Source: a bacterium (GTDB lineage Bacteria > Electryoneota > RPQS01). From it: DNA of 64,000 nt. The notes beneath the pieces are model-generated. The model saw only the letters and a list, made by a program, of their open reading frames with translations. It was not told the origin of the DNA and did no database searches. Positions 13,626 through 38,579 of this stretch are shown piece after piece. Location of the stretch: positions 13,174 through 77,173 of the forward strand of contig JAHJDG010000101.1 of assembly GCA_018812265.1 (NCBI GenBank), read 5' to 3'. The first letter of the stretch is position 1. Every line of letters begins with the position of its first letter. The translations under genes were made by a program, and so were the position numbers.

Positions 13626-13641
13626 CGCGCAACAAGTATTC

Positions 13642-14454: not shown

Positions 14455-14463
14455 TAATCGGTA

Positions 14464-16578: not shown

Positions 16579-16638
16579 CGGGAGTCGGATGGTGACTTTG
16601 CCGATGAAAACGAAATACACTGAAATACCCTGAGTACC

Positions 16639-19634: not shown

Positions 19635-19659
19635 ATCGGACAAGCGCGAATATTTCAGT

Positions 19660-19694
19660 GCCGGCGCGAGACAATCTCGCGCCGGCATTTCTTT
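19660..19694 (+). terminator. rho-independent terminator after nuoN
   Basis: 12-bp GC-rich stem GCCGGCGCGAGA / TCTCGCGCCGGC with 3-nt loop, followed by ATTTCTTT. A second hairpin at 19700-19733 lies between it and the tRNA. Confidence 0.65.
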
Positions 19695-19738
19695 AGAGGA
19701 AACCACGCCGCTATCGGGAATCGGCGTGGTTTCTCAGT

Positions 19739-19836
19739 TGGCGGGAACGTCTGGGAATCGAACCCAGCCATCCGCCGTGAGGCGGACGCAAACGGTTTTG
19801 AAGACCGCGGGGGCCACCAGTGCCCCATCCGTCCCC
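19739..19836 (-). tRNA. selC: probable tRNA-Sec (selC), anticodon UCA, long variable arm, CCA encoded
   Basis: Minus-strand fold: T-arm CTGGG-TTCGATT-CCCAG, anticodon loop CTTCAAA (UCA), 6-bp variable stem TCCGCC/GGCGGA, ~98 nt. Only 7 bp of acceptor pairing found by eye (one G-U), so the model is imperfect. selA and selB are in the same window. Confidence 0.55.
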
Positions 19837-19872
19837 ATCGCACAAGTCACGGGCTGTGACTTGATGCGGATG

Positions 19873-21273
19873 CTACCCTGATGAAGTCATTAGACGAACA
19901 AACTCGCTTGGCGCACCGTCGAAATCACCGTTGCTCATGAAGACGACAACCGAGGGGCGATGATCCATAAGATTTCGAAGGCCGGCCGGTACATCGCTAT
20001 TTTCGGCCACCATCGCCGAAACACCGCGGGTGTTTAGATCGTTGACCAATTTGTCAACATCCAGTCGTTGCTCAATGGGTATACGCTCGCGGCGGTGAAC
20101 GGTTCCCACAATCACGCTGTCGGCTACTGAAAGAGCGTCAGCAAGGGTATCCTGAAAGACATTACGGACCATTGTGTTGGAGCGAGGTTCGAGAACTGCG
20201 ATGAGCCGATGTTGTGGATACGCCTCGCGCACGGCTTGCAACGTGGCCCAGATCGCCGTGGGGTGATGTGCGAAATCGTCAATGACCACCAAGCGTTCCG
20301 TTTCGAGCAGCTTCTCCATACGTCGCCGGAGACCATGAAACGATTCGATAGCCGAACACAGATCTGAAACACTCACGCCAAGAGAGTGCGCACAGGCAAT
20401 AGACATCAAGGCGTTTTGACGATTGTGAATTCCCGGCAGCCGAAATCGGCACCGATGAAGCTCTCCCTCCGGCGTGCGAAATGCAAGCAAGTTTGAGTCG
20501 GGAAGCAGTTTCCACTCTGCGTTTTCGCTCGTCCCAACTCCGATCTTTCGACAAGGCGCATTGTCCGTCAGCCTCACCGTTGCAGGACAATCTGCCGCGT
20601 AGATGAGCTGTCCCGAGCGCGGCAGCAGACGGATCAGCCGTTGAAACGACACAAGCATCTCTGATTCGGTGGCGAAAATATCGGCATGGTCAAATTCGAC
20701 GCTTCCCAATACAAGCGTTCTTGGGAAGTAATGAAGAAATTTGGATCGCTTGTCGAAGAAGGCCGTATCGTATTCGTCGCCCTCGAGAATGAAAGGCGCA
20801 TCGCCATTTCCAATTTGGGCACCGGCCGGGAAATCCAGCGGAAGGGCGCCCACCAGAAAGCCCGGATCTTCGCCCACCGCAGTTAGCAGATGAGCCAGAC
20901 AGGTCGTGGTCGTACTCTTGCCGTGGGTTCCCGCAACGACGATCGTGTGTCGGCCATTCAACACGACGCGATGCAAAAACTCGGGGAACGAATACAGAGG
21001 AACTCCTGAATCCAACGCCGCCTCGACTTCCACGTGGCCGCGCGAAAGAGCGTTGCCGACAATAACCGTCGTTCCGTCCAGAGGAAGATTCGCCGCTGCA
21101 TAGGGAGTCAATACAGGGATGGCATTCGAGCGAAGAATGGTGGCGGCAGGCTCATAGACTTTTCCATCGGAACCACTCACCGCAAATCCAGCCTGTTTGA
21201 GTAGGACGGCAAGATTGGCCATGCCGATGCCCCCGATTCCGCTCAGAAAGACCTTGCGCTGAAGCCCGATCAC
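19873..21273 (-). CDS. mpl: UDP-N-acetylmuramate:L-alanyl-gamma-D-glutamyl-meso-DAP ligase (Mpl-like Mur ligase)
   Basis: N-terminal GIGGIGMANLA Rossmann, GTHGKSTTT P-loop, EGDEYDTAFFDKRSKF block typical of Mpl rather than MurC. Confidence 0.7.
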   Translation of the reverse strand: MIGLQRKVFLSGIGGIGMANLAVLLKQAGFAVSGSDGKVYEPAATILRSNAIPVLTPYAAANLPLDGTTVIVGNALSRGHVEVEAALDSGVPLYSFPEFLHRVVLNGRHTIVVAGTHGKSTTTTCLAHLLTAVGEDPGFLVGALPLDFPAGAQIGNGDAPFILEGDEYDTAFFDKRSKFLHYFPRTLVLGSVEFDHADIFATESEMLVSFQRLIRLLPRSGQLIYAADCPATVRLTDNAPCRKIGVGTSENAEWKLLPDSNLLAFRTPEGELHRCRFRLPGIHNRQNALMSIACAHSLGVSVSDLCSAIESFHGLRRRMEKLLETERLVVIDDFAHHPTAIWATLQAVREAYPQHRLIAVLEPRSNTMVRNVFQDTLADALSVADSVIVGTVHRRERIPIEQRLDVDKLVNDLNTRGVSAMVAENSDVPAGLRNLMDHRPSVVVFMSNGDFDGAPSEFVRLMTSSG

Positions 21274-23135
21274 TCGGAATTACCTTCCCAATTCTGTTCG
21301 ATTTGGCGCATGAATTTCGTGAGACGGGGATTGCCCTCACTTAAGGTTCTTGCACTCGCAAGGGCGGCGAAATAGTGGATCGTGTCCCGCCGCGAGTACG
21401 CATCTTGCATCTGCAAGAGTGACGACACCGCGGCTTCATTCAACAGATATCTTTGGCGCTCGCTGATTTTACCTGAAGGCGGGATGAAATTGTCGGCACA
21501 GAGTACCGGTTCCGACTTATTTGGGTCATCGGTGATACGCCAGAAGTAGGCTCCCGGTGTTTTCGGAAATGAGGCGGCGATTCCGGAATGACCCGCAGCC
21601 TCCACATCCCGCACATAGACCGGCCGATGAGTTCGTTGCAGGCGAATCATCGAGTTGTGCATTTCCACGAACGCGCTTTCGATTCGCTGGGCATCATAGC
21701 GTTGCCTGGATTCGAAGGGAGCCACCGCATCCATGAACAATTCCACTTGACGATTGATCCCCTGAAACACGTCCGGGTGATTGCGACGTTGCTCCTTAAT
21801 ATACCAGGACCTCTGCATGAGATTGATATCAAGCATCACAATATCCGGACGAACGTTCTCGATTCGCTGATAATATATGAACGGGCTTTGAATGTCCCAA
21901 TTGCCCTGAAGGACCAGCGAGCTGTCGGGAATCGTGCGCAGAATTTCCATCAAGAATCGTTTGGCGAAATCGTCCTCGCTGGCGACGGCGGATTTAGCCG
22001 TTGCGGCAAGCGAAGCGATGGGAACCGAAGCGGCGAGGAGAAGCGAAACAATTTTATGCGACACCCGACCTTTTCCCCACCTATCGAGACCTTCGATCAG
22101 GTGTATTATGCCAAGGACAGCCAACAAAAATATGGCGCAGAAGAATACGAGGAAGTAGGTTGAGATATCAGGGATGTCATAATTCAGATTATACGCCGTC
22201 CCAACGGCCCAAATGCCGAATAGCGTAAAACCCAGCAGCAGCTTTCGCGAGACGCTCCGCCACAGACCGACCGAAGCCAGAATCACAGTTGCCCAACCGA
22301 TCTCACGGGGCATCTGAGACAAATGGTTCACGAGTTTGCCAAGCAGCGCCGTTAATCCTCCGGTGAACATCCATACCTGATATTGCCATGCCGATAGATG
22401 TCGAAAGAGTTTCTCGAGCGATTGCGGATCGCCCCAATCCAATACCGGATCGAGCGTGCTACGGATGGGAAGAAAAAGAATCGTGGTCGCGCCGAGCAGT
22501 ATCGCAGCGGCAGCCATGCCTACCAACCGGACCGGATGCAGGGCACGGGACGCACACCGCCAAATCACAACGATGAGCAACGGGATAAACCATACAATCG
22601 TGAGATGATTGCCGAGTCCAAGTCCCCACAAGTAGCACACCAGAAGAGATGACCGTAGAGAAGCGGCGGAAATCTCGCGCATCGTCAGTATCGAAACGGA
22701 TAGCCACAAAATCGCAGCGACTATAAGCCATGATAGCGGATACACTTCGGCGAAGTCCACCGAACTCCAGGCCGTATACGAGAGGGCAAAGCCTATCGAA
22801 AGGATGATTGCCATTGCCGTGCTGAGGCGAAGCGAGACTCCGTTAGTGGAAAACAGACGCAACACCGCCAGCGAAAGGAATCCGCAAGCCGCTGCACCCG
22901 CCATGGCGGAATAAACGACCATCGCACGGTCCGGAGACATAGGAATGAGAAAGAGCCAAACGCGGCCAAGAATCGTGTACAACGGATAGCCGGTTGGATG
23001 AGCAATCCCCAGCGTATATGCCACCGTCGTCAGTTCGCCGCTGTCTACCAAACCGATTCCCGGTCCGGACGTGATCCAATAGATGAATCCTACGATTGCG
23101 GCAACGACCGGGAAAGCAAGGCGATCAACTCGCAT
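21270..23135 (-). CDS. DUF2723 (TMEM260-like, GT-C fold) membrane protein, putative glycosyltransferase
   Basis: N-terminal motif LVDSGELTTVAYTLGIAHPTGYPLY characteristic of DUF2723. Many TM helices plus a large C-terminal soluble domain. Confidence 0.65.
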   Translation of the reverse strand: MRVDRLAFPVVAAIVGFIYWITSGPGIGLVDSGELTTVAYTLGIAHPTGYPLYTILGRVWLFLIPMSPDRAMVVYSAMAGAAACGFLSLAVLRLFSTNGVSLRLSTAMAIILSIGFALSYTAWSSVDFAEVYPLSWLIVAAILWLSVSILTMREISAASLRSSLLVCYLWGLGLGNHLTIVWFIPLLIVVIWRCASRALHPVRLVGMAAAAILLGATTILFLPIRSTLDPVLDWGDPQSLEKLFRHLSAWQYQVWMFTGGLTALLGKLVNHLSQMPREIGWATVILASVGLWRSVSRKLLLGFTLFGIWAVGTAYNLNYDIPDISTYFLVFFCAIFLLAVLGIIHLIEGLDRWGKGRVSHKIVSLLLAASVPIASLAATAKSAVASEDDFAKRFLMEILRTIPDSSLVLQGNWDIQSPFIYYQRIENVRPDIVMLDINLMQRSWYIKEQRRNHPDVFQGINRQVELFMDAVAPFESRQRYDAQRIESAFVEMHNSMIRLQRTHRPVYVRDVEAAGHSGIAASFPKTPGAYFWRITDDPNKSEPVLCADNFIPPSGKISERQRYLLNEAAVSSLLQMQDAYSRRDTIHYFAALASARTLSEGNPRLTKFMRQIEQNWEGNSE

Positions 23136-24015
23136 GACTCAAATCGAGTCCGCATTGTCGCGCCGCGGCATCGGTGGCATTGCGCATGAGCATGGCAATC
23201 GTCATCGGACCGACGCCGCCCGGCACGGGTGTAATCTTCGATGCGACGGGACTCGCGGATTCGAAGTCCACATCGCCGCAGGTTTTTTCTAAAGCATTTG
23301 ACGGAGGATGACTTCCCACATCAATCACAACCGCACCCGGCTTAACCATGTCGCCGGTGACAAACTTTCGCCGACCAATGGCTACGACAAGCGTATCCGC
23401 TCTTCTGCAAATCTCGGGCAAGTTTGCACTTCGCGAATGACATACCGTAACGGTCGCATTTCCATACCGCCCTTTTGAAGACAAGAGGATAGAAAGCGGT
23501 CTTCCCACAAGATTCGAACGTCCGAGTACCACGACTTCCCTACCCGTAATCGCCACACCCGATCGAATCAGAAGCTCACATATCCCATAGGGTGTGCAGG
23601 GAATGAAGTGCGGTTGTCCGGTGCAGAGAAGACCTACGTTGTGGGGATGCAGACCATCCACGTCCTTTTGCGGATCAATTCGACGGATCACTTCTTGGCT
23701 ATTTATCTGAGGCGGGAGCGGGAGTTGCACGAGAATACCATGGATACTCGGATCCTGATTCAAGCGATCAATAAACCTTAGCAGGTCTTGCTCATTGGAT
23801 TCGGCCCGCATCGTCTCGACAGTTGATCGAATGCCAAGCTTCTCACACATCTTGGCTTTGGCGGATACGTACATCTTAGAAGCCGGATTATCGCCGACAA
23901 GCACCACCGCCAAACCGGGAAACGCACCTCGCTGTTCATGGAGCAGGCGAATATCGTTTTCGATTTCTCCGCGAATGATTCCGGCGATCGCACGACCGTC
24001 AATGAGTTCCGCCAC
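23125..24015 (-). CDS. folD: bifunctional methylenetetrahydrofolate dehydrogenase/cyclohydrolase
   Basis: PGLAVVLVGDNPASKMYV and VVLGRSNLVGRPLSILL motifs, 296 aa. Confidence 0.9.
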   Translation of the reverse strand: MAELIDGRAIAGIIRGEIENDIRLLHEQRGAFPGLAVVLVGDNPASKMYVSAKAKMCEKLGIRSTVETMRAESNEQDLLRFIDRLNQDPSIHGILVQLPLPPQINSQEVIRRIDPQKDVDGLHPHNVGLLCTGQPHFIPCTPYGICELLIRSGVAITGREVVVLGRSNLVGRPLSILLSSKGRYGNATVTVCHSRSANLPEICRRADTLVVAIGRRKFVTGDMVKPGAVVIDVGSHPPSNALEKTCGDVDFESASPVASKITPVPGGVGPMTIAMLMRNATDAAARQCGLDLSHAS

Positions 24016-24976
24016 TGCGCTTCTTCTCCTTCGCTGTTGCCAAATAGCTCATATAGCCACGCGTGTATTGTCGCAGATGAAGATAGTCGAAGACGATGCG
24101 CGGCAAATGGTGACGTCGCAACGCAACGACCAAGAAACGGAATACAAAGCAAACCGGCGAATACATGAGGAGTCGAAATGCACCTCGATAGAAAACAGAA
24201 TATCTTGATCGCATGTTCAGAAGTGAAAACGTGCGGTCCAGATTCAGTTCGTAGAAAAGGCGCGGATGCCGTGCAAGCAGGAGCGGCAGGCATTCTTTAC
24301 CATACGTAAGAAGATTACGCAGCAGCTCATGCAACGGACGCAGGTGATGATGAACGGCGAGACATCGCGTCTCTCCGTAGATTGGCGTAGCGGTCTCCTC
24401 CAATCGCATCCCCAGATCGAGATCCTCCCCACCCCATACATTAAACCGTTCGTCGAAAAGACCAATCTCAAGAAGGAGATCCGTCGGCACGGAACAATTT
24501 CGCGTCAAGAAGTAGCGTCCCGGCAGCCGAGATCCGAGCGATAATTTCGCAGCACCACCGTTGTTCAAATAGTGGTTCAGCGCGCGGGAATCGGGATGAT
24601 CTTCAAACTCCGATTTCCCGACGATGACACAGCGCTCGCTCGCGTGTCGGGAAGCGTGGATCGCCAGAAAGTCCCGCTCTACGCTGTGATCGCCGTCAAT
24701 CATGACAACAATGTTTCCGCTGGCGACCTTAATTCCTCTATTCCGTGAGGCCGCCCTCCCTCCGTGACGGTCACCGAAGATAGGACGAATCCGCTCATTA
24801 GAAACGGATCTAAGCCATTCACGCGTTCCATCCGTCGAGCCGTCATCAACAACGATGATCTCGTAGCGATCCGTTTCGTAGTCTTGATCCAGCAGCTCCG
24901 TCACGAGTCGGCGAATATGAGCAAACTGGTTCCAGGAGATAACGACAACACTCAGGGTCGGTTTGGTGCGATCCAT
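23999..24976 (-). CDS. family 2 glycosyltransferase
   Basis: LSVVVISWN...YEIIVVDDGSTDGT...DGDH motifs of GT-A/GT2. Confidence 0.8.
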   Translation of the reverse strand: MDRTKPTLSVVVISWNQFAHIRRLVTELLDQDYETDRYEIIVVDDGSTDGTREWLRSVSNERIRPIFGDRHGGRAASRNRGIKVASGNIVVMIDGDHSVERDFLAIHASRHASERCVIVGKSEFEDHPDSRALNHYLNNGGAAKLSLGSRLPGRYFLTRNCSVPTDLLLEIGLFDERFNVWGGEDLDLGMRLEETATPIYGETRCLAVHHHLRPLHELLRNLLTYGKECLPLLLARHPRLFYELNLDRTFSLLNMRSRYSVFYRGAFRLLMYSPVCFVFRFLVVALRRHHLPRIVFDYLHLRQYTRGYMSYLATAKEKKRSGGTH

Positions 24977-26037
24977 CCCAATTCCTGATAGAAGCTGTAG
25001 AGTTGATCTCCCACGGCGCGGACGTCATGGCGCTCGCACACCCACTGCCGGCCGACTTTAGCCAAGTTTCCGCACATTGTCTCGCTGTTCAGGAGTTCCT
25101 CGAGAACTTCGGAAAGATCATCGGTCGCGGCGTGAACGAACGGATTCTCGCCCAAACGCTTCATCATGTTCTCGGGGATGTTCGTCACTACCGGCATTCC
25201 CATCGCCAGCGCTTCAACGGAACTCATTCCATAACCCCAGCCGCCCGCGTTCGTCAATTGGTCAACGAAAATATCGCACTCATATTTGTGACGAAGCGCT
25301 TCATCATGCGACAGATCACGAAGCATAATCAGTTCCACTTCATAGCGTTTTTTCAACTCCGCTACGGCCGCTTCCACGAAAGAAGTGCCCTTATGGGGAT
25401 TACGCGACGCATGGCAGATCCGCACCGGATGATGAAACCGATACTCTCGCTCCGGATACGCCGACGTATCAAACGGCAGATAGAGATAACGGAGACGCGA
25501 ATCGAAATCCAAAAGATCCCATTCGCTCGTCAGGCGCAATTCAGCGATCTCATCCACCGCCGGAATAATGCCACGAGTACGCAAGTCGGATCCGTGGTAG
25601 AAGCAGGCAACGTGTTTGCCGCGTCGGATGGCTTGCCTCGCAAATCGCGCATCCCTCGTAAAATCGAGCCCGCCATCGAGTTGGATCACGTCGAATGAGT
25701 TGAGATCGAACTTGTGAATGGCGCGTTCGATCCGCGGCCATATGAACGAATCGCGCAATGCAAAAAGGCTACGTTCCACATTGCCCGGCCGCCAATAGGG
25801 CATTTCATGGCTTGGTTGCAGCTCGCTTGGTCGCAACGCCCGCAGTGAATCGCGCAGGCCACGCACCCATGACCGATCCGGCATGAAGGGCAGGTTCAAG
25901 CAGATGTCATCGGGAAAATCCCAACGACTGTGCCAGAACGTTACGAAACGGCACTCGTCGCCGCGTCGCCGGTGCTCTTCGCGAAACAGGGCAAGCGTAC
26001 CGGAAACATGTTCCGCGGCAATGTAGAGAAACTTCAT
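24952..26037 (-). CDS. family 1/4-like glycosyltransferase (GT-B)
   Basis: C-terminal nucleotide-sugar binding half resembling GT4 (EALAMGMPVV). N-terminal half divergent. Confidence 0.55.
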   Translation of the reverse strand: MKFLYIAAEHVSGTLALFREEHRRRGDECRFVTFWHSRWDFPDDICLNLPFMPDRSWVRGLRDSLRALRPSELQPSHEMPYWRPGNVERSLFALRDSFIWPRIERAIHKFDLNSFDVIQLDGGLDFTRDARFARQAIRRGKHVACFYHGSDLRTRGIIPAVDEIAELRLTSEWDLLDFDSRLRYLYLPFDTSAYPEREYRFHHPVRICHASRNPHKGTSFVEAAVAELKKRYEVELIMLRDLSHDEALRHKYECDIFVDQLTNAGGWGYGMSSVEALAMGMPVVTNIPENMMKRLGENPFVHAATDDLSEVLEELLNSETMCGNLAKVGRQWVCERHDVRAVGDQLYSFYQELGWIAPNRP

Positions 26038-27500
26038 CCGCGAGCAAACATCTTTCGCAAGTGATGCTTCTCCCGCTCATCGAAAAATGCGACAGCATAA
26101 AGCGCAATCGGCAACGATATCACGAGCAACAGTCGCATAAGCGGCGTTTCAAACGGCGGCAACTGGGAAAGTGCATATAGTACCGCGAAAACAAGAACCA
26201 TCTTTGCGATTCGCGTCCATTCATAGGGAACAACGTAAGCCCGGCGAACGACCAGCCAAAGACCGAAAGCCTCCAGAATAAACGCCAGAAGCGTGACCCA
26301 GGCGGCCGCCATCATTCCATAACGCGGGATGAGAAGCAGATTCAGGCCAATGGTTACGGCCGCCGCGATTCCGGTAACCAGCGGCAGTCTTGCCGTCAGC
26401 TTTTTCAGATACACGCCGACCATGAGATTTGCATATATGCCGTCAAAAATATGCGCCAGTAAGATGATCGGAAATACGGCAAGTCCGGGCCAATAGGAGG
26501 GCGCGAGAATACAACCGATTCCGGGCCAGGGTGTTTTCACGATCAGATCAACGAAGAACGCCAAGACAAGGAGCAAGACACCGGTTACGAGAAGGTAGTA
26601 CGTGAGAACTCGGGCAAAGAGTCGTGGGGCATCCTCACGGTCGGCGTTTGAAAGAAAAAAGGGTTGCCAGGCAAATCGAAATGCGCCCGTCACGACGGCC
26701 ATGAACATTCCCAGTTTATATCCCGCGCTGTAAAGGCCCGCCTCTTCCAAACCACGATACAATTCAAGAATCTTTCGATCGGCAAGTTCTATGACCATAA
26801 CGAAAAGGTAGGTCGGGACGTTGGGAAGACCGAATTTCACCATTTCACCGAGAATACGACGATCAATTTTCCAGGTCACGCGGCCCCGAAAGAAAGGCAG
26901 CAATACCCCCAGCGTCATTGCGCTCGCGATGACATTCGCGTACAGAACGCCCAAGATCGAGAGGTGCAGGTATCCAACAAACCAAATGTTCAGTCCGATA
27001 TTCACACATACGTTCAGCAGCTTGACGCCCGCGAAGTGATAGGGGCGGAGCGTTCCGCGCAGCAGAAGAAAAGGAAACGTGGCCAGCGTGTCAAAGAGCA
27101 GAATACCTGCGCACAGTCGAATCAGAAACGAGACGTTCTCCGGTTGAGTCGGCACCTGCACGACGAGACGACCGATGGTCTCCGCGAAACCGAGAACCAT
27201 ACCCGTCAGAAGCACGCTCGTCAGAAGCGAAACACAGAGCGCCGTTCCCGTGATCCTCCGGCGCTGTTCAGACTCTTTTGAGAGTGTGAAATAGCGAAGA
27301 TATGCGATGTCCAGACCATAGATGAAGAAGGTCTGGGCGACCGCCATGAACATGAAATAAAGCGTGAGCTCCCCGTACTCGGCAGGCGTCAGCCGGAAGC
27401 TGTAGTACGGCAAGAGGAGGAACGTGAGCAGACGAGTGGCGATGTGTCCCACGCCATAGACGACTGAGTCGCGCGTTAGTCGCTTCAGTTGTTCGAGCAA
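26034..27500 (-). CDS. MOP-superfamily oligosaccharide flippase (Wzx-like)
   Basis: 488 aa, ~12-14 TM helices. Polysaccharide-biosynthesis-protein-like N-terminus. Confidence 0.7.
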   Translation of the reverse strand: MLEQLKRLTRDSVVYGVGHIATRLLTFLLLPYYSFRLTPAEYGELTLYFMFMAVAQTFFIYGLDIAYLRYFTLSKESEQRRRITGTALCVSLLTSVLLTGMVLGFAETIGRLVVQVPTQPENVSFLIRLCAGILLFDTLATFPFLLLRGTLRPYHFAGVKLLNVCVNIGLNIWFVGYLHLSILGVLYANVIASAMTLGVLLPFFRGRVTWKIDRRILGEMVKFGLPNVPTYLFVMVIELADRKILELYRGLEEAGLYSAGYKLGMFMAVVTGAFRFAWQPFFLSNADREDAPRLFARVLTYYLLVTGVLLLVLAFFVDLIVKTPWPGIGCILAPSYWPGLAVFPIILLAHIFDGIYANLMVGVYLKKLTARLPLVTGIAAAVTIGLNLLLIPRYGMMAAAWVTLLAFILEAFGLWLVVRRAYVVPYEWTRIAKMVLVFAVLYALSQLPPFETPLMRLLLVISLPIALYAVAFFDEREKHHLRKMFARG

Positions 27501-28730
27501 TCAAACACCTATCGCCGGGAGTAAAAAGAGAACGTATGGAAAGACGAGCACTGCCACCAACAGCCATTGGCGCCGGACGGCGTTGATGGCGGCGGTCAGC
27601 GCCAAGCAGACCACGGGCCATACCACAAACACGTAGCGGGCTTCGGCTTGATCATAGCGCAGGTTCAGCCAGATGAATCCGCCCAAAGCCAAGAGCGTTG
27701 CGCCGATGAGCAAAGGCCGTGAAATAATGATTTTTGCCGCTCCACGATAAAAGAATTCGAAAGCGAAAAAGAGTCCGGGAACGGCGAGCACCGTGAGACC
27801 GATTGCGCCCTGCCAGAATTCAGTCCAAGGAAACAAGAAGGACCTCACCGCGAACGAGAATGCCATGAAATCGGGAATTCTCCAGTGGGGCGTACCGAAA
27901 CCGGCGGAAAGCGGGAGCAGTGAGCCGAACTCACTCAGGTTGCGTTGCCAGACCGGCCAAGTAAGCAGAATAATCGCAGCAAAGGCCGCAGCGGACAGAA
28001 TCGCAACACGCTTGCGCGATTCCGATTTCAATGCGATGGGCAGCAACGGAACCAGAAGGAGCGCCGACAATTTCGTGAACAACGCGAGAACAGACCAAAG
28101 AACAAACGCCGCAAGCCAACGGAAGCCGAAAGGACTCGACCGCAAGCGAACGAGTGCAATCAGCATGAGTCCAGCAAGAATCCAGAACAGCGGATCATTA
28201 CCAGCCGTTGCCGTGAATCGCACAAAGACCGCGCCAAGCGAGAGGAAGATCACGCCAGCGGCGGCCGTCACATGTTCGACGGCGAGGGCCCGGCAGAAGA
28301 AGAGATATACCAGCAACAAGAGAGCGAAAGCACCCAAGCCGAAAACACGTCCCAGATAGACGATATCTTCGCGGCTTTCCAGCGACATTGCCCGCGCCAG
28401 AAGAGCGATGCTCACATAGTAGAGCGGCGGTTGATAGTTCTCGTATTGGGCACTCTGCAAAGCGCCAGGCGTTTCAATGGACTCGACGTTGAGGGGAAGC
28501 GTTCCAGAATGCACCAGATGCAACGCGTAGTTGGCATGTGCAAGCTCGTCATTATAGGAAGAGAGCTTGCCGGGAACGCTCTCGCCGCCGATTGGAGTCA
28601 GAACAATGAAGAGTATCCGCAGGACGATTCCAACGATAAGTGCAAAAAGAGCCGGAGGTGAACCCATGACGCGACGGACGTATGACGTTACGATTTTCCG
28701 ATCTCCTCCGTTCATACTGTCACGCCCCAA
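27501..28730 (-). CDS. GT-C membrane glycosyltransferase (GT39/GT83, PMT/ArnT-like)
   Basis: Polytopic. YENYQPPLYY motif in the first periplasmic loop resembles the ArnT/PMT_2 family. Confidence 0.6.
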   Translation of the reverse strand: MGRDSMNGGDRKIVTSYVRRVMGSPPALFALIVGIVLRILFIVLTPIGGESVPGKLSSYNDELAHANYALHLVHSGTLPLNVESIETPGALQSAQYENYQPPLYYVSIALLARAMSLESREDIVYLGRVFGLGAFALLLLVYLFFCRALAVEHVTAAAGVIFLSLGAVFVRFTATAGNDPLFWILAGLMLIALVRLRSSPFGFRWLAAFVLWSVLALFTKLSALLLVPLLPIALKSESRKRVAILSAAAFAAIILLTWPVWQRNLSEFGSLLPLSAGFGTPHWRIPDFMAFSFAVRSFLFPWTEFWQGAIGLTVLAVPGLFFAFEFFYRGAAKIIISRPLLIGATLLALGGFIWLNLRYDQAEARYVFVVWPVVCLALTAAINAVRRQWLLVAVLVFPYVLFLLPAIGV

Positions 28731-28745
28731 GCGGAGTCGCCGGAG

Positions 28746-30635
28746 TCAGACATCTCGCGCCGTACGGCCCGCCACGCGAACGTTGCCAACCCGCTGGGTA
28801 ATACCTATACCATCCAAGTGCTCGAGAAACGGAACGACAAACTTGCGTGATGATCCAAGCAGTCGGGCCGCCTCCGAAACCGTGAGGTGAACTCCCTGCA
28901 GAATCGTTTTACGAATCTGCGCAATGGCGTCGTCGAATTGTTCCGTCGTAAAGAAGAGATCGTTACCGAGTCGCCGACATTTTCCCATTCGGTCGAGCAG
29001 CACGAGCGCTTTCTCAATCTGCTCGCGCGGTTTTTTCAGCGTCTCGGCGATGGCCAGCGCCGAAGGCGGCGCGAAGGCTCCTTGCCGGAGCAAATCCAGA
29101 ACATCTTCGCTCAACTCTTGCTGGTCGGGACGCAACGTCATACCGCGGTCGGTCGCTCGGTAGAGGGCCGACTCCTGTACCAATTTGCCATCCCTGACAA
29201 GTTCCGTCAAGAGGAAATCACGTATTGTGTCGGGAAGGCGTGCGAGTTCCATCTGAAAGAGATCACTTCGCGAGAAGCCGGGACTGTCGGGCCGATGGTC
29301 ATGGAGCGTGTTCACTCGGTTCACGACATTCAAGCGCAATTCGGCCACACGGGATCGGAGCAGCAGGTACTCGCCGACCTCAACCGGCCGATCGGGTTGG
29401 GGAAGCTCGGTAAGTATCTCATTCAGCTCGGATCGGGATATCGCGAAAATCTTTGTTGCAACACGGTGTTCCAGACCGTACAGTCCGCGTCCTTTTAGCA
29501 GCGAACCGATGGCATCGGCGAGGGATTCCGTGTGCAAACTCCGGGCGAGGGCCGCCTCGCTCTCGCGAGTGCGTGCTCGAAACGGCGGCGGCGTCGGTTC
29601 CAGAACCGTGCCACCTCCCAACGTCTCAAGGGGCGAGTATCTCCTTAAAACAAAACGATCTCCCCAAGCGGTCACGATTTCCGATTCGAGGAGCACATTG
29701 GCATAATAACGTCGTTTGTCCATTCGCTCGATGAGCTGAAGACGACCAATCGCTTCGTGCGTACCGATCAGGAAACGGATGCGCTGACGATCTTTCAGAG
29801 TATCCGCTTTGGGCAGCAAGTCAATAGCCACTCTCACACAACTCGTCTCGAGCAGGGCATCCGGGATCGTCAGCATCCCGCCCCGCGCAAGGTGCTCGGT
29901 CTGACCGATCAGATTGAGGGCGGCACGTTGTCCGGCCCGCAGAAGGTCGGCTTCTCCGCCCTGCGTTTCGAGACGCTTGACACGAATATCAAACCCGCCG
30001 GGCATCACCGCGAGGCGGGCATCTTTGTGGACTTCACCGGAAATGATTGTGCCGGTCACGACAGTTCCGCGTCCCCGGATGGTGAAAACCCGATCCATCG
30101 GGAGACGAAAAACGCCACGCTCGGGCCGCGCCGGCAACGAGCGGAGCGTGGTCATCAAGCGCTCGCGAAATTCGGGCACACCACGGCCCGACAAGGAATC
30201 TACTCGATAGAGCGGCGCCGACTCCAGAAACGTTCCGCGGACCGTGTCATAAATCTGCTCTTCCACAAGCTCAATCCAGTCGTCAGCGACACCATCCACC
30301 TTCGTGACCGTAATCGCACCGTAACGCACACCGAGCAAAGCGAGAATCGAGAGGTGTTCACGGGTTTGCGGCATGACCCCGTCATCGGCCGCCACCACGA
30401 GCAGAGCAAAATCCACCGTAGCCGCGCCCGCCACCATATTGCGGATGAGTCGCTCGTGCCCAGGCACATCAATGATGGCCGCCACATCGTCGAGGAAGGC
30501 ATAGCCCAGATCCAAGGTGATTCCACGACGCTTCTCTTCCGGCAGCCGGTCAGGATCGGTTCCGGTGAGGGCCCGAACGAGCGCGGATTTGCCATGGTCA
30601 ATGTGACCGGCCGTACCGACAATCACTCGAGCCAT
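28746..30635 (-). CDS. selB: selenocysteine-specific elongation factor
   Basis: N-terminus [21 protein letters not shown]...[18 protein letters not shown]...DVPGHERL matches SelB block by block. 629 aa with C-terminal winged-helix region. Confidence 0.9.
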
Positions 30636-30645
30636 GATTCCCGTC

Positions 30646-30864
30646 TCAGCCGAAAATCCTGTTCATATCAAAGAGGTGGTACTCGGACATGCACCATCGG
30701 CATCCGTTGTACTGCGGACGATGATTGGTGTCAATCATCCGTTTCACCTGATCGAGAGTGTGGATCTTTCGTTTCTTGTCTTCCGGGATCTTCTTGACCT
30801 GACACTCGTACTTGACAAAAGACATGTCGTGGATGATGTGATTCTCATCGTCAATAAGGTACAT
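30646..30864 (-). CDS. small Cys/His-containing hypothetical protein (72 aa) immediately upstream of selB
   Basis: ORF only. Contains C-x32-CxxC plus several His. Not recognised as a known family. Confidence 0.35.
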   Translation of the reverse strand: MYLIDDENHIIHDMSFVKYECQVKKIPEDKKRKIHTLDQVKRMIDTNHRPQYNGCRWCMSEYHLFDMNRIFG

Positions 30865-30889
30865 GAGGCACCTCCATCGGAAAATCCGC

Positions 30890-31612
30890 TCATTTGGCGG
30901 GCACGCGACTCGGAGACATCGTCAGCCGCTCAATCTCCTGCGGGGAGAGCTCTCTCCATTCTCCCGGGATGAGTTCCCCCAGTTCGAGATTTCCCACTTG
31001 AATACGGTGCAGACGAGTCACGCGCGCGCCCAGCGCCGCAGTCATTCGTCGGATCTGTCTCTTTCTTCCTTCGGCAAGAACGATGCAGAGCCGATGCTGA
31101 GAAACAGCCCGCGCCTCCAGCGCACGCGCGATACCATCTTCGAGCTCGATTCCCTTCGTCAAGCGGCGCACTCGCGACGCGGACAATGAAACATCCGTAT
31201 CCACCAGATAGGTTTTTCGCGTGCCGTGACGGGGGTGGGTGAGACGAAAGGCGAGTTCACCGTCATCCGTAACCAGAAGTAAACCGGAACTGTCTTTATC
31301 CAGGCGACCGATGGAGAAATAGCGACGGTCGGACGGAAGAATATCAAAGATGGTGTGGCCCTTTTCGCGACTCTTGCGGCGAGTGCAGAGGAATCCCGGC
31401 GGTTTGTGCAACATGAGAACGCGCGAAGATTGCAGAGGAGGAAGAAGAACGCCGTCGAGAGTGATTTTATCCCGCGCAGGCTCCGCGTGCGAGCCGGGCA
31501 CGGTTACGGTCACTCCATTGACAGCGACGCGGCCCGCGGCCATGAGCCGCTCGGCTTCGCGCCGCGAGGCAACGCCATGCCGGGCGAGGATTTTATGAAG
31601 TCGCTCCTTCAC
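30890..31612 (-). CDS. pseudouridine synthase, RsuA/RluB family
   Basis: N-terminal S4 domain (RLHKILARHGVASRREAERLMAAGRVAVNG) and catalytic GRLDKDSSGLLL motif. Confidence 0.85.
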   Translation of the reverse strand: MKERLHKILARHGVASRREAERLMAAGRVAVNGVTVTVPGSHAEPARDKITLDGVLLPPLQSSRVLMLHKPPGFLCTRRKSREKGHTIFDILPSDRRYFSIGRLDKDSSGLLLVTDDGELAFRLTHPRHGTRKTYLVDTDVSLSASRVRRLTKGIELEDGIARALEARAVSQHRLCIVLAEGRKRQIRRMTAALGARVTRLHRIQVGNLELGELIPGEWRELSPQEIERLTMSPSRVPAK

Positions 31613-31663
31613 CGTCGGTTTGAGCGATAGGTTCAGCCGGATTGCAGAACGATGGGCGGCGCG

Positions 31664-33058
31664 TCAGGAGACGGTGAGAACGTCCAACTTTTTCGATTTC
31701 TGCTGCCACTCCTCGATGGGAACGACGGGTTTTTCGCGGAGTCGCAGTTTACGTTTGCTGAAGAACGATTCCACCCGGAAGGTGATTTCCGCCACCTGAC
31801 CGTCTAAGGTGTTGACGTGGATGTCTTCCGACAAGTCTCCATAGAGGATACGCAGCAGTCGTTTGCCGGAGAGCAGGTGTCCGAGCAACGCCGCGTCGAA
31901 CGGGCGATCGGCGCCGTCGAGAATCAGTTCATTGTCCACATAAATGCGCAACAGACTGGCATCGAATTTCCGCAGATCGTCACTGGGCCGCACCGCGATA
32001 AATCCGTCTCCGGACAGTCTGACGTATTCGCCGACGACGGTGGCCGCAGGTTGGTCTTCGGTCAGGATGGTCGTAACCGATGCGGGAGTGCGGAAGCCCG
32101 CCACTTCGGCGAAGTCAATCCGGTGCTGCCCATAGGGGACGTCCATCGTCACTTGTCCGACACCAGCCGGTTTCGAGTCTACGCGAATTCCCGCCGCGAG
32201 GGGGGAAGTGGTTACAACCAGTTTCGGTTTCGGAAGCGTGAGATCGGGAAGCAGTTCGAAAGCGACGAGCTCATGTTGAGCATCGCGGGCGAGGGCGACG
32301 ACGATGCTGTCGGGTTTGGCGGTGAATCCGTCCCGTCGTGCACGGAATGAATAGATTCCCCGATCCAGTCCGCGGAACGTGTAAGGAGTGGCGCGGGTGG
32401 TCAATGCTCCGTTGACCCAGATTTCGGCATTCGGCGGCGTGGACGTAACCGTAATTTGTGTACCTTGCAGGGAACCGATATCTTCCTGATTCACCGGTTT
32501 GACGCCCGACGGTTTCCATTCGGCGTCGGCGCGCGTGATCCGTTCGCGAGATATTCCGGACGTAGAGAAATCCACCAAACGGCGAGTCGGCCTCAGAATG
32601 GCGGGCGGAATGGCATGGACCGGTTCGCCGGTGCTGAAGACCTCCTGCCGAACCGCCCGGAGGGGCGGGATGGTGTCCTGCGGAACAACCGGCTCGGGTT
32701 CGTGCAGATTGAATCGAACAAGTTTCGCGCCACCGGACAGGACTTCAATCACGGCAAACTCGGGATCCGAGACCAGTCCCATTTTTCGAACGGTAATGAT
32801 TTTTCTACCGGCCTTCACCTGAATGGTAGTGTCGGTGGTGAAGCCGGTTTGCATTCCGCCGACGAGGATATCCGCACCGGGAACGGAGGTCGTCACACGC
32901 ACTGATCCGGTTCCCCTGGCACTGTAATTCAGAACCACATAGGCTGCGATGGCGATGACCAGCAGCGGGAGAAATATCTTGAGGAGCGCGCCGAGAATCG
33001 CGACCGCCGAGGCCGATCCGCGATGAGTCGTTCGGGTGGTTCGCCTGCTACGTCTCAC
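31664..33058 (-). CDS. membrane-anchored PEGA-domain protein
   Basis: Single N-terminal TM helix followed by repeated PEGA-like beta modules. No enzymatic motif. Confidence 0.5.
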
Positions 33059-33837
33059 ACTAAATTCGTCCCTGTTGGTTGGCGCGGCTCTTCGGTGCCG
33101 CGCTTCAGAATAGGAGCCAGAAGATCTATCGGTACCGGGAATATTGTTGTCGTGTTATTTTCGGACGCCACCTCAACCAGCGTCTGGAGAAAGCGAAGCT
33201 GGATCGCCACCGGGTGGCGCTCGATGATGGCGGCGGCGGCGGTGAGTTGATCGGCGGCCTGACGTTCACCTTCAGCGGCGATAATCTTGGCTCGCCGCTC
33301 ACGTTCGGCTTCGGCCTGACGAGCCATCGCCCGCTTCATCTCCTGAGGCAAATCCACGTGTTTAACTTCGACCAGCGCGACCTTGATGCCCCACGGCTCG
33401 GTTGACTGATCAATGATCGTTTGGAGTTGATCGTTGATTTTATCGCGTTTGGCCAACAGCTCGTCCAATTCCACCTGACCGAGAACACTCCGCAACGTCG
33501 TTTGCGAGAGCTGACTGGTGGCAAACAGGTAGTTTTCCACCTCGATGATCGCCTTCTCCGGATCCAAGACGCGGAAGTACACGACCGCGTTGACCTGCAG
33601 CGAGACGTTGTCGCGGGTGATTACATCCTGCGTAGGGACATCGAAAACGACGGTACGCAGACTGACTTTGACCATGCGATCGGCGATGGGAATCAACAGG
33701 ATCAGCCCGGGTCCCTTGACGCCGATACAGCGTCCCAAACGGAAGATCACGCCACGTTCGTACTCATTCAGGATGCGAACTGCGGAGATCAGGATGAACA
33801 GAAGGAAGACGACAACAAATATGTACAGCGGAAGCAT
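33055..33837 (-). CDS. SPFH/band-7 (stomatin-like) protein
   Basis: Conserved SPFH core ([12 protein letters not shown]...[17 protein letters not shown]) with Ala/Glu-rich coiled coil. Confidence 0.85.
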
Positions 33838-33854
33838 CGTTCTCTCTCCTTTGG

Positions 33855-35159
33855 TTACGACGCCGGGTTTTCTGGCCGATCCACCGGTTCGACTTTCAGA
33901 ATCATGCCTTCGATTCCCACAACGCGAACTTGCGTACCGGGTGCAAGCTCACGCGCGGACATGGCGTCCCACCATTCGCCGTGAATCTGAATCTTGCCTT
34001 TGGGAGCCAGAGCTGTGGCGACCGTCCCGATCTCGCCCACCAATCCCTCTTTGCCGGTAGTCACCTTGCGGCTTTGAGCTCTGAGACCCATTCCCACCAC
34101 AAACACGAAAAACAGCGCGGTAATGATGGACGCCGGAATAATAAGTTCGAGACCCACGTGCACTCCCGTTTTCACAGGTTCAAAGAGCATAAGTGATCCG
34201 AGGATCATCGCGACTATGCCACCCACGCTAAGCAGGCCGTAGCTGGTGACCTTGATTTCGAGGATGAACAAGATGATGCTCAGGAAGATGAGCAACAATC
34301 CGGCCCAATTCAACGGCAACAAATGAAGACTGTAAAACGCCAGAATCAGCGACAAGCTCCCGACAACTCCGGGGAGGATCGCACCCGGATTGTAGAGCTC
34401 GAAGAACAGGCCGTAAATCCCCAATAACAAGAAGATGTATGCAATATTAGGATCGGCAATTACGCTGAGAATCTTGAGCCGGAGGCCCATTGACGTGCGG
34501 CGGATTTCCGCTCCCGCCGTATGCAATGTGTCAGAGATACCATCAATTGATATGACACGGCCGTCCAGAAAGAGGAGCAGACTGTCCGGAGAACTCGAGA
34601 TCGTGTCGATAACTCCCAACGCGAGAGCTTCCGATTCGGTGGCCGAAATGCTCTCGCGAACGGCTCGTTCGGCCCATTCGACGTTACGCCCGTTGTGTTC
34701 CGCCAACGTCCTGGCAAAGGCGGCGGCGTCATTGGTGGCTTTGTCGGACATGACTTTCGAGGTATCGCCGCCGCCAATCCCGCCGATTCCGACGGGATGC
34801 GCAGCGCCGATATTGGTTCCATGCGCCATCACGGCAAAGTGGGCGGCGAGAGTGATAAAGACCCCTGCCGAACCCGCTCGCGCCCCAGAGGGAGCTACGT
34901 ACACCACGACTGGCACCTTAGCAGCCAAGATGTCTTTGCAGATCAGGCGAGTCGAGGACAGCAGACCTCCCGGCGTATCGAGTTCGATCACGAGGGCTTC
35001 GGCGTGTTGTTCCTCCGCCTTCTTCAGGGCTTCGCCGATCATTTCGTAGGCCACCGGTCCGATGGCGCCATCCAGAGTCAGCCACTCCACGTGAGATGCC
35101 GTCGCGATTCTCGCGACCGCGGTCAGGCAGAATAGGGAGACGATCAGAGTAGTGCGCAT
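33855..35159 (-). CDS. NfeD-family membrane-bound ClpP-class serine protease
   Basis: ClpP-like N-domain, central TM bundle and C-terminal OB domain. Classic pairing with the adjacent stomatin gene. Confidence 0.8.
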
Positions 35160-36589
35160 TATTCTTTCGCGCTCCTAAGAGACTCCGTCACGGTTCGGAG
35201 AAAGTCCTTCTCATCGGGGTCCACCATTGTCCGCACATCAAACCAGACAACATCCTGGCGGACGGTTCCGATCACGGGTATTTCTGCGAGACGCAGCTTG
35301 GCCACCCAAGCGCCGGCGGTGATTCCGGCCGGCAGTGCGCAGATGGCTCGACTGGGAAGGCTCACGGCGGGAAGAGTTCCCGAACCGGCTTCGGATTCAC
35401 AGGGACGGATTTCGAGAATCTGCCACTCACCCAGTTCTTTCAGGCGCTGCAGAAGTCGCCCTGCGCGAGTTTCAAGAACTTCAATGGGCGTCGTGAGCAT
35501 GTTCCAGACGGGAACGGTTTCCGCGACCCGACGACGGTCGAGAAAGGCGCGCAACGTGGCGGCCATCGCGGCCAGACACAATTTGTCCACTCGCAGAACG
35601 CGCGCCAGCGGACTCCGCCGCAGCTGCTTCACAAGATCTTTCCGGCCCACTATAATGCCTGCCTGCGGACCGCCCAGAACCTTGTCACCGGAAACAAGGA
35701 CCAGATCAACTCCCGCGTCCAAGCTGGCACGCACGTTCTCTTCGGCAGGCAAGCCCCACTCCGTCCAATCGAAGAGTAATCCGTTGCCGAGATCCTCGAC
35801 GACCGTCAGATTACGCTCCCGTCCCAATGCGACCAAGTCCGCCACCGAGACCGACTCCGTAAAGCCGACAATGCGGTAGTTGGACGGGTGTGCGCGCAGG
35901 AGCAGCGCGGTTTTCGTGGTGATCGCTTCGCGGTAATCCGAGATTCGCGTCCGATTGGTGGTTCCCACCTCGACCAGGCGAACGCCGGATCGCTGCATGA
36001 TGTCGGGCAGCCGAAAACTTCCGCCGATCTCGATCAGTTGCCCGCGGGACGCAATGACTTCGCGGCGATGAGCGAGTGCGTTGAGTGTGAGGTAGAGCGC
36101 AGCGGCGTTGTTGTTCACCACCAAGGCCGCTTCCGCTCCCGTCAGCAGACGGAGGAGATCCTCGACGTGTTCCTGTCGCTCGCCGCGTTCGCCGCTTCGC
36201 AGATTGATTTCGAGATCGCAGTAGCCAATGGCCTCACGCAGCGCATTCGCTGCATCGGCGGAGAGCGGCGCGCGGCCTAAGCCGGTGTGAAGAATCACGC
36301 CGGTGGCGTTGATGCATCGTCGCGGGCCGGTATGGCGGATTTGTTCCAGCCGTTCGATGACCGATCGCGCCAGCCGATCCGCAGAGGGAGCGCTCTTCGC
36401 GGATGAGACTTTGGTGCGCGCTGCCGCGATAGCTTCCCGAATGAGAACCGTCAGAATGGCGGGCGAGACGTTCGCCGCAGCGTCGCGCAGCAAGGGATGT
36501 GCGAGCAGCGTATCCACGGCCGGCAAAGTCCGGCGAGGGTCGTCGTTTGCTCCCACCGCTACAGCGTCGTCTCCAAGCTGAGCCGCCAT
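35159..36589 (-). CDS. selA: L-seryl-tRNA(Sec) selenium transferase (selenocysteine synthase)
   Basis: CINATGVILHTGLGRAPL, VVNNNAAALYL, EIGGSFRLPDIMQRSG, SGDKVLGGPQAGIIVG blocks align with SelA. ORF track start is 36631; internal Met 36589 avoids overlapping the upstream gene. Confidence 0.9.
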   Translation of the reverse strand: MAAQLGDDAVAVGANDDPRRTLPAVDTLLAHPLLRDAAANVSPAILTVLIREAIAAARTKVSSAKSAPSADRLARSVIERLEQIRHTGPRRCINATGVILHTGLGRAPLSADAANALREAIGYCDLEINLRSGERGERQEHVEDLLRLLTGAEAALVVNNNAAALYLTLNALAHRREVIASRGQLIEIGGSFRLPDIMQRSGVRLVEVGTTNRTRISDYREAITTKTALLLRAHPSNYRIVGFTESVSVADLVALGRERNLTVVEDLGNGLLFDWTEWGLPAEENVRASLDAGVDLVLVSGDKVLGGPQAGIIVGRKDLVKQLRRSPLARVLRVDKLCLAAMAATLRAFLDRRRVAETVPVWNMLTTPIEVLETRAGRLLQRLKELGEWQILEIRPCESEAGSGTLPAVSLPSRAICALPAGITAGAWVAKLRLAEIPVIGTVRQDVVWFDVRTMVDPDEKDFLRTVTESLRSAKE

Positions 36590-38097
36590 CCGGTGAACGG
36601 TTGTACCTGACGGCAGACACCATTCGAGCATTTGAGTCCTCCCCGCTCGCGGCCATAGAAAAGACCAATGCGATGTTTGCCACGCCCCAGAGTGGTGGCG
36701 ATCTCCGCGGACGGCCAGCCATCCCCTTCGCGCTCTTTCAATTCCTTGTCGTTCGACATCTCATATTGGAGCGACACCGACAAGGAGCGTCCGTCGAACC
36801 AACCGAGGCCGATCAGTTGATCCGTGAATTCTTCGTCGGCGCGTCTGGGATGCGTGATAAGGAGTGTTTCGCTATGAATCTCCAACTCCTGTGATCCTCT
36901 CAGTGGAGTCGTGAATTTCAGCCAGCCCCACTTCCGCTTCCGCCAGACTCCAAACGCGTCTTCGTTGGCTCCCAGTTCGACAAAGAGACTCCTTGCGCCC
37001 GGTAGAGATTGCTCTGCATTCACGAAGAACTCCCAGAACGGATCATCCGCTTCCTGCAACGTCGGACGGGGAATCCCGCCTTGATGCTTGGCATGGCTGC
37101 TGGAAAGGTTGTAGTGCAGAGTCGTGAAGGTCGTGGACGTTGCTTGTCCGGAAAGTTCGACTTGATATCCAACTTCATCGGCCGGTCGCAGAACGTGCGG
37201 TTCACGGGTTTGAAGAAGCCGCGGCCCAAGTTCCCGATAGACCGTAGGCGGACTTTGAAAGGGAGTCAGGATCACATAGTGATAGTCTTTGTACTCGGCG
37301 AGCAGCGACCAACCGCATTTGCTGACCACGCCCCCGAGGTAGGTTGCATGTCCTTCAGATGATTTCGGTGACAGCACACTCTCACTCCAAGCGCGTTCCC
37401 CATAGAACGTGAAGGCCCCCCGTGACAGTCGCCAGTCGAAACCTGAGATATGGGTCTCCCGGTAGGCTCCGCTGTCCACGAAAAGATAGTTGAAACCCAG
37501 CGCCTGCCCTCCAAAGCGGAGATTCACGCGGCTTCCCGAAACGTCCGCTTCCTCGACGTAGATGCCTTTTTGCGACGATCCGTGCAGCAGGGTTATGAAC
37601 AGCGGTTCGCTCTTCAGTGCGACATGCACTCCATCCAACTCGGTATCGAAATACAGGTCGCGATTTTCATAGGAACTGAAAGCGAGGCCGTGTGCCCAGA
37701 TATCGCTGAAATCACCCCCCCGGATCGTGAAGGGCCAGAGAGTGGCCTCGATGTATCGTTTATCAATTGTGCTCACGTCTGCGAGGCCGTCACGATAAAT
37801 ATCTTCGTCGGAGGGACGGAAATGCAGGAAACGGCCGCCGACCCGCAGGTTGCCATAATATACATCGAGTCGAAGGCGGTTTTCCACAAAACGACGCGCG
37901 ATGGTGTTATCGGGATATTCACTTTCCGGGAGACGCGAGTCCACCTCATCTCCTTCATCCCATCGCAGATAATTGGAGCCCTCCACCGTCGCTTCGGTTT
38001 CGGAATCTTGTGCACCGGATGGGACTGCCCAGACCAGCAGCAGAACCAGCAGAAGCGTGAGCCGTTTATTCACCGTCCGCTCCCAGGAGTATGTCAA
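36559..38097 (-). CDS. predicted outer-membrane beta-barrel protein (hypothetical)
   Basis: Signal peptide, alternating amphipathic beta strands, C-terminal aromatic residue pattern. No named family recognised. Confidence 0.45.
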   Translation of the reverse strand: MTYSWERTVNKRLTLLLVLLLVWAVPSGAQDSETEATVEGSNYLRWDEGDEVDSRLPESEYPDNTIARRFVENRLRLDVYYGNLRVGGRFLHFRPSDEDIYRDGLADVSTIDKRYIEATLWPFTIRGGDFSDIWAHGLAFSSYENRDLYFDTELDGVHVALKSEPLFITLLHGSSQKGIYVEEADVSGSRVNLRFGGQALGFNYLFVDSGAYRETHISGFDWRLSRGAFTFYGERAWSESVLSPKSSEGHATYLGGVVSKCGWSLLAEYKDYHYVILTPFQSPPTVYRELGPRLLQTREPHVLRPADEVGYQVELSGQATSTTFTTLHYNLSSSHAKHQGGIPRPTLQEADDPFWEFFVNAEQSLPGARSLFVELGANEDAFGVWRKRKWGWLKFTTPLRGSQELEIHSETLLITHPRRADEEFTDQLIGLGWFDGRSLSVSLQYEMSNDKELKEREGDGWPSAEIATTLGRGKHRIGLFYGRERGGLKCSNGVCRQVQPFTGWRLSLETTL

Positions 38098-38563
38098 TTC
38101 GCGCGGTCAAGGTTTCCGTTCTTTTCAGTATTCCCCGGATCTTCTCCACCGGCATACCGTCCCGATCCAGCAGCACCATATAGGGCAGATTCGTCCCCCC
38201 GTATCGCTTCAACACGGATCCGGTCGGATCCAGCAGCACACGCCATCCATAGCGCTTTGCATCCATGTAGGGTTTGACGCGAGACTGAGTGCGGGGCGTG
38301 TCTTCCGACACGAGCAGGACCTGAACGCCCTTGTCTTGGTACGAGTCAAACAGATCCCGATGCTGGTCCATCTCCTTCTTACAGGGGACACACCAAGTCG
38401 CCCAGAAAACGAGCAGGACCGGAGCGCTGCCGCGAACCGAAGCCAGTCGGAATGTCTCGCCCTGTGTATCAACGAGAGACCAATCGCGGCTGTCGGAAGT
38501 TGCCAGAGTGGCGGTTCCAAGTGCAAAGAGGAGGACGGCTGCCGTTCGAAGCGAGAGTTTCAT
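38066..38563 (-). CDS. TlpA/ResA-like thiol-disulfide oxidoreductase (thioredoxin fold)
   Basis: Signal peptide. WATWCVPCKKE CxxC active site. Confidence 0.8.
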   Translation of the reverse strand: MKLSLRTAAVLLFALGTATLATSDSRDWSLVDTQGETFRLASVRGSAPVLLVFWATWCVPCKKEMDQHRDLFDSYQDKGVQVLLVSEDTPRTQSRVKPYMDAKRYGWRVLLDPTGSVLKRYGGTNLPYMVLLDRDGMPVEKIRGILKRTETLTARIDILLGADGE

Positions 38564-38579
38564 GGAGCTCCTCAGAGGT

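Follow-up and report, generated by a model that had tools for sequence, protein, structure and literature searches.

Selenocysteine-insertion genes at conserved positions in a long gene string of an Electryoneota bacterium

We report that a stretch of 64,000 nucleotides from a bacterium of the Electryoneota (GTDB lineage Bacteria; Electryoneota; RPQS01; GenBank assembly GCA_018812265.1, contig JAHJDG010000101.1, positions 13,174 to 77,173 of the forward strand), hereafter the window, very probably carries the standard, intact bacterial machinery for inserting selenocysteine (Sec), scattered by an inherited gene order and with selD and the selenoprotein genes located elsewhere. The genes in question are selC, which specifies the tRNA for Sec (tRNA-Sec), selB and selA. 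Their scattered layout is the conserved gene order of a lineage, and neither decay nor a new functional module, because the same order recurs in relatives. An earlier note on this DNA, made from the letters alone, had remarked on the dispersal of the three genes through one long minus-strand string and had predicted that the organism uses Sec with targets encoded elsewhere; the intact genes and their conserved positions fit that prediction.

In the textbook pathway, seryl-tRNA synthetase (SerRS) charges tRNA-Sec with serine, and the pyridoxal phosphate (PLP) enzyme SelA turns the resulting Ser-tRNA-Sec into Sec-tRNA-Sec with selenophosphate supplied by SelD. SelB in its GTP form recognises both Sec-tRNA-Sec and the selenocysteine insertion sequence (SECIS), a hairpin that immediately follows an in-frame UGA on its 3' side, and brings the tRNA to the ribosome. 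In the arrangement that we propose for this uncultured lineage, which would belong to the Fibrobacteres-Chlorobi-Bacteroidetes (FCB) group, the three sel genes would not form an operon of their own; each would keep its set place among unrelated genes for housekeeping and envelope functions, in a co-directional string about 21 kb long that selC closes after mpl.

The three selenocysteine genes

19739 to 19836, minus strand: selC, tRNA-Sec with anticodon UCA (ARAGORN, Rfam RF01852, predicted fold, relatives)
28746 to 30635, minus strand: selB, Sec-specific elongation factor (Pfam, TIGR00475, structure alignment)
35159 to 36589 (or 36631), minus strand: selA, L-seryl-tRNA(Sec) selenium transferase (Pfam SelA, TIGR00474, structure 3W1H)

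The products of selB and selA, which the earlier note had held to be unambiguous, both score above the cut-offs of their equivalog models and align in full length to solved structures. SelB (333 bits against NCBIfam TIGR00475, cut-off 242) contains the Pfam domains GTP_EFTU, GTP_EFTU_D2, Beta-barrel_SelB and SelB-wing_2/3, a predicted make-up of EF-Tu-like domains I to III followed by a C-terminal winged-helix SECIS-binding domain, and its residues 5-620 align to residues 2-603 of Escherichia coli SelB (5LZB; E 6.5e-73), winged helix included. The Sec machinery of the window is an already known system, and a protein 100% identical to this SelB is already annotated at NCBI as ‘selenocysteine-specific translation elongation factor’. 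SelA reaches 453.6 bits on Pfam SelA and 540 bits against NCBIfam TIGR00474 (cut-off 268), also carries a Se-cys_synth_N domain, and aligns over its full length to Aquifex aeolicus SelA (3W1H; E 9e-105), conserving the motif SGDK(L/V)LGGPQAG, in which the lysine of SGDK is presumably the catalytic PLP lysine. Its reading frame can be extended to 36631; a start at 36589 leaves the upstream gene un-overlapped.

A tRNA with a UCA anticodon and a long variable arm had been picked out beside nuoN, and both predictors used here identify it as tRNA-Sec. ARAGORN finds four tRNAs in the window and types one of them as tRNA-SeC (anticodon tca at position 36; 19739-19836, minus strand), while the match to Rfam RF01852 covers 19743-19836 of that strand (58.5 bits, which exceeds the gathering score of 47; E 2.8e-09). 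Minimum-free-energy folding predicts a cloverleaf whose variable arm is long (-49.8 kcal/mol, z -2.7). From the Rfam alignment and the fold, the T stem has 5 bp and the variable arm 8 bp; the D stem pairs over 6 bp, a single A bulging out, and closes in a 4-nt UGGU loop, the anticodon loop in the Rfam alignment is CUUCAAA, one anticodon-stem pair is flagged as non-standard, and the 3' end has the G73 discriminator and an encoded CCA. The acceptor stem had looked imperfect in a hand fold, enough for a rejection of the selC model by tRNA predictors to be envisaged. Alignment and fold agree on the imperfection, showing seven standard pairs and a G8.A87 juxtaposition at the eighth position that is kept in relatives, but ARAGORN and Rfam both accept the gene. 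Its geometry is compatible with an 8/5 arrangement (13 bp) only if the G.A stacks as a non-canonical pair.

Gene order in the window and in relatives

19739 to 40611, minus strand: co-directional gene string from NUDIX through mpl to tRNA-Sec (ORF coordinates, Pfam, NCBIfam)
30890 to 31612, minus strand: RluB/RsuA-type pseudouridine synthase (Pfam S4 domain and PseudoU_synth_2)
30646 to 30864, minus strand: conserved orphan protein of 72 residues (homologues, profile search)
19873 to 21273, minus strand: mpl-like Mur ligase, the last protein gene of the string (Pfam Mur_ligase, Mur_ligase_M, Mur_ligase_C)
19659 to 19687 and 19699 to 19733, no strand assigned: two perfect hairpins with arms of 13 bp and 12 bp (repeat search)

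Read from 40611 down to 19739, the string has 19 entries over about 21 kb, tRNA-Sec counted in: NUDIX, PEGA + ResA-like, ResA-like, DUF6029, SelA, NfeD, Band7/stomatin, PEGA, RluB-type, the 72-residue open reading frame (ORF), SelB, DUF2142, polysaccharide flippase, GT1-like, GT2, FolD, TMEM260-like, Mpl-type Mur ligase and tRNA-Sec. Its largest intergenic gap is at most 51 nt. Pfam and NCBIfam agree with the earlier listing of glycosyltransferases, a stomatin/NfeD pair, a PEGA protein and a pseudouridine synthase among the genes that separate the sel genes. The pseudouridine synthase exceeds the cut-off of the NCBIfam subfamily TIGR00093 (145 bits against 109) and falls below that of the RluB equivalog model; for Mpl the best NCBIfam match, TIGR01081 mpl, stays under its cut-off (338 bits against 388), and database sources name the protein Mpl.

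In E. coli, neither selD nor selC is adjacent to selAB. Compared with the E. coli-type system (selC, selA, selB, selD; Böck and colleagues), the window has three of the same components with the same domain make-up: its SelB is alignable end to end, the C-terminal winged-helix SECIS-binding module included, and its tRNA likewise has the UCA anticodon, G73, a long variable arm and a 5-bp T stem, differing in an eighth acceptor pair that is G.A rather than Watson-Crick. The layout differs in two respects: selA and selB are parted by five genes and 4.5 kb, selA ending at 35159 and selB starting at 30635, and selC, encoded on the same strand, closes the string 8.9 kb downstream of selB. No compact selAB(C) operon, with selA directly upstream of selB and often selC adjacent, is present in the window. 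The description of the arrangement as unusual therefore holds for the distance between selA and selB and for nothing further, as their split is the sole departure from the common selAB operon pattern. Contiguity of selD with selAB is seldom seen, and the absence of selD from the vicinity is the usual situation (Romero 2005, PMC1273633).

A scan of species-representative genomes with the 72-residue protein yielded 32 loci, to which the window proteins were mapped by tblastn. About 15 species-level genomes (group A: L010-L020, L022-L025 and L028, together with L001-L006 from homologue look-ups) keep the whole order from NUDIX to Mpl, and called genes agree with the tblastn mapping. In these genomes SelA and SelB each give one full-length tblastn match, 44-62% identical, and their conservation is similar to that of the genes around them; L014, for example, has SelA at 62% and SelB at 58% identity, against 53-87% for neighbouring genes. 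Local differences comprise the insertion of an iPGM gene behind selB, seen in many of the genomes, an optional TMEM260 gene, and a tetratricopeptide repeat (TPR) gene between the 72-residue ORF and selB in L004, L005 and L028. In the sub-lineage of L004/L005 (10232-14090), which has the TPR insertion, a radical-SAM gene also shares 35 nt with the 3' end of selB. In L015 (CAVTJX010000018.1), most genes of the locus (SelB, SelA, DUF6029, DUF2142 and FolD) were each recovered as several in-line tblastn fragments, which points to frameshift errors in the assembly rather than pseudogenes.

The flanks fetched for group A ended at mpl, and the placement of selC was followed through Mpl homologues and their contigs. 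In the window mpl ends 36 nt upstream of tRNA-Sec, and in three of three further genomes (L123, L124, L125; Mpl 63, 59 and 48% identical) tRNA-Sec again stands directly after mpl. The four tRNA sequences have a mean column identity of 95%, with paired changes in the variable arm and G8.A87 invariant, and tRNA-Sec occurs together with selA and selB in every relative examined for it. A metagenome scan with Mpl gave only matches of about 40% identity from other phyla, uninformative on selC placement.

No two of the four genomes agree in the DNA immediately 3' of tRNA-Sec, where the window has the nuo operon, L123 CTD7/MC3/LmuB_C (11965-15613), L124 PEPCK (11842-13587) and L125 an Rce1-like gene (11563-12276). 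selC thus marks a synteny breakpoint and, by analogy with enterobacteria, may be an insertion site for islands. The CTD7/MC3/LmuB_C genes of L123 are conflict-system genes. In the window, the two GC-rich hairpins stand between the convergent tRNA-Sec and nuoN genes and are probably bidirectional terminators closing both transcription units. They went unflagged in the consensus terminator scan, since the minus strand has no T-run behind them. On the plus strand the same hairpins give a sub-threshold Rfam match to the Bacillus small RNA ncr1175 (41 bits, gathering score 60).

Alternative readings of the layout

Could the string be a functional unit? In such a super-operon the putative 72-residue zinc protein, translationally coupled to selB, RluB or the ResA-like oxidoreductases beside selA would work with the Sec machinery, for instance as an accessory or regulator of SelB. 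The attraction lies in the order rluB, 72-residue ORF, selB, kept in about 15 genomes, in the gaps of 2-12 nt that separate the 72-residue gene from selB in most group A genomes, and in a faint likeness of one ResA-like protein (38066-38617, motif WCVPC) to Sec-containing families, namely weak NCBIfam matches, far below cut-off, to the ‘WAxxUGC’ family NF041054 and a SelL-related redox family.

The small protein itself is real and conserved. Its 41 homologues are 59-85% identical (named sources: Calditrichota, Calditrichaeota or Electryoneaceae), with His12, Cys21, Cys55 and Cys58 invariant in the pattern H-x8-C ... C-x2-C, a His/Cys3 set that is probably a zinc site. The best structural match is N-Ada (1u8b), and the 72-residue protein shares with N-Ada-type small zinc-binding domains a small alpha/beta make-up and a set of four invariant ligands of metal type; there was no significant sequence or fold match to the Cys4 zinc domain of N-Ada (Ada_Zn_binding). 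A profile search of 1.84 billion representative proteins returned 21 members of the family. No Pfam or NCBIfam model covers the module, in keeping with the earlier remark that a Cys/His protein without an assigned family sits between rluB and selB. In more distant relatives (P0284, P0286, P0289, P0291, P0293, P0297, P0298) the H...C...CxxC module occurs in other settings: it forms the C-terminus of proteins with a membrane anchor, is joined to a Pol-beta-type nucleotidyltransferase, belongs to a 413-residue protein, or is repeated in tandem.

Its genomic company, however, varies. At least 12 genomes (group B: L021, L026, L027, L029-L032, L035, L036, L038-L040) hold the 72-residue gene after genes for PBP2, RodA, a TPR protein and an M23 peptidase and before an IF-2B-family gene, GT1, GT2 and FolD; selB, selA and rluB are all missing from the 10 kb on either side. 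Because group B genomes carry the gene without selB nearby, the protein is not tied to selB, nor is it Sec-specific. Against the idea of a functional unit stand, besides, the TPR gene that parts it from selB in three group A genomes, the membrane anchors and nucleotidyltransferase that bear its domain in distant relatives, the Cys found in all ResA-like homologues, and the equal conservation of the whole string, mostly of unrelated functions, as shared ancestry predicts. We consider such a super-operon improbable. Quite improbable, too, is a broader form of the idea, in which the 72-residue protein, from an undescribed family of small His/Cys3 zinc domains, would have become a partner of SelB or RluB in the Sec-using clade, translationally coupled to selB and tuning, for example, UGA-Sec decoding or ribosome modification, or in which the string would be a super-operon coupling Sec supply to envelope and thiol-redox functions.

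A second alternative is a relic pathway, in which selC, selB and selA survive while selD and all selenoprotein genes have been lost and decay is under way. Consistent with this, neither selD nor a Sec-coding gene was found in the 64-kb window or in the fetched neighbourhoods. The Pfam map of the whole window contains a single AIRS protein, and as the only AIR-synthase-fold protein is PurL (54489-56732) there is no SelD in the window; a tblastn search with an E. coli SelD query had no match in the window or in 1.6 Mb of related loci. An initial list of TGA-joined ORF pairs was too noisy and was replaced by a six-frame codon-usage scan of the window requiring coding signal on both sides of an in-frame TGA, which returned only junctions of adjacent genes. 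The absence of selD and of a selenoprotein gene from the window, claimed earlier, is thus borne out.

Two candidates for TGA read-through were rejected. The one strong case from the scan, at 27503, is the stop of DUF2142 abutting the flippase start, two genes rather than one because they lie in different frames in L014. The TGA-split ORF at 718-1560 (plus strand), between two tRNA-Pro genes, is off-frame noise over the real gene at 824-1528. As the earlier note had stated, the two thioredoxin-fold genes use Cys and not Sec, their Cys-x-x-Cys motifs being WCVPC and NCTGC, and Cys occupies both positions in every relative; the WCVPC protein and all its orthologues use Cys.

Decay fits the surviving genes poorly. 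SelA and SelB are full-length with family-typical motifs and remain single full-length matches in about 15 species-level relatives at identities similar to those of their neighbours; the tRNA keeps its 95% mean column identity while proteins have diverged to 48-63%; three genes intact across a whole clade would not be expected without selection; and selD has been reported in metagenome-assembled genomes (MAGs) of KSB1 (PMC9012183). A relic is, in our judgement, very improbable. Retention of all three sel genes and of a near-invariant tRNA, where flanking proteins are at about 50% identity, therefore favours a working pathway over decay, and we infer that the pathway is active and that selD and selenoprotein genes exist elsewhere in the genome.

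That the RNA at 19739-19836 is some other long-arm UGA-reading tRNA (an allo-tRNA or a suppressor) can be given next to no credence: the G.A after seven standard acceptor pairs, the bulged D stem and the non-standard anticodon-stem pair would allow it, but the score above the Rfam tRNA-Sec gathering threshold, the SeC type given by ARAGORN, the 5-bp T stem, 4-nt D loop, G73 and long variable arm, and the constant company of selA and selB speak against it.

Several observations weigh against an intact pathway scattered by inherited gene order, the reading that we prefer. Neither selD nor a selenoprotein gene was found in the window and fetched loci, and activity is read only from conservation. 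The eighth acceptor pair of tRNA-Sec is the non-standard G.A, invariant in four genomes, though accepted by both predictors. Consensus scans for promoters and terminators inside the string did no better than on shuffled sequence, and co-transcription of the string is a supposition. The taxonomy of the relatives draws on inconsistent submitter labels of MAGs, which read Calditrichota, KSB1 or ‘bacterium’.

Wider context and other features of the window

A search of the literature on selenocysteine in Calditrich* or selenoprotein in Caldithrix found nothing relevant. In a published survey of MAGs from KSB1, selA, selB and selD were predicted for most clades, and selC was stated to be absent (PMC9012183). 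This absence is probably an artefact of protein-only annotation, because we find tRNA-Sec in a KSB1-labelled MAG (L124:11651-11746, GCA_016214895.1; Rfam 56.4 bits). In another KSB1-labelled MAG, L126, selB has unrelated genes for neighbours, and selA, selC and selD are all missing from the 10 kb on either side; a scattered arrangement of sel genes is therefore nothing unusual in this part of the tree. Compared with such dispersed KSB1- and Calditrichota-labelled MAGs, the clade of the window keeps its three sel genes within one 17-kb span of a conserved string.

Additional features lie outside the string. The complex I operon beyond the hairpins (9404-19634, plus strand) contains 11 genes, nuoA-B-C-D-H-I-J-K-L-M-N, with nuoD intact at 10824-12026 and no nuoE, nuoF or nuoG, the NADH-oxidising module. 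A GmrSD_N-type restriction endonuclease gene (3621-5207) falls in a patch of low GC content (3150-5207; 0.45-0.49 against a window mean of 0.57), which suggests horizontally acquired defence DNA. Two proline tRNA genes, tRNA-Pro GGG (622-696) and tRNA-Pro CGG (1538-1614), flank the 234-residue ORF at 824-1528, a putative protein-L-isoaspartate methyltransferase (PCMT-like) as judged from an S-adenosylmethionine-binding motif alone; the long antisense and off-frame ORFs in 622-1614 are spurious.

These results leave the understanding of Sec insertion unchanged, and their value is mostly one of annotation. In a Calditrichota/KSB1-like lineage the decoding half of the Sec pathway looks complete and its genes keep their positions, selC exists where the KSB1 survey had reported its absence, and a conserved orphan family of zinc-type mini-proteins is brought to attention.

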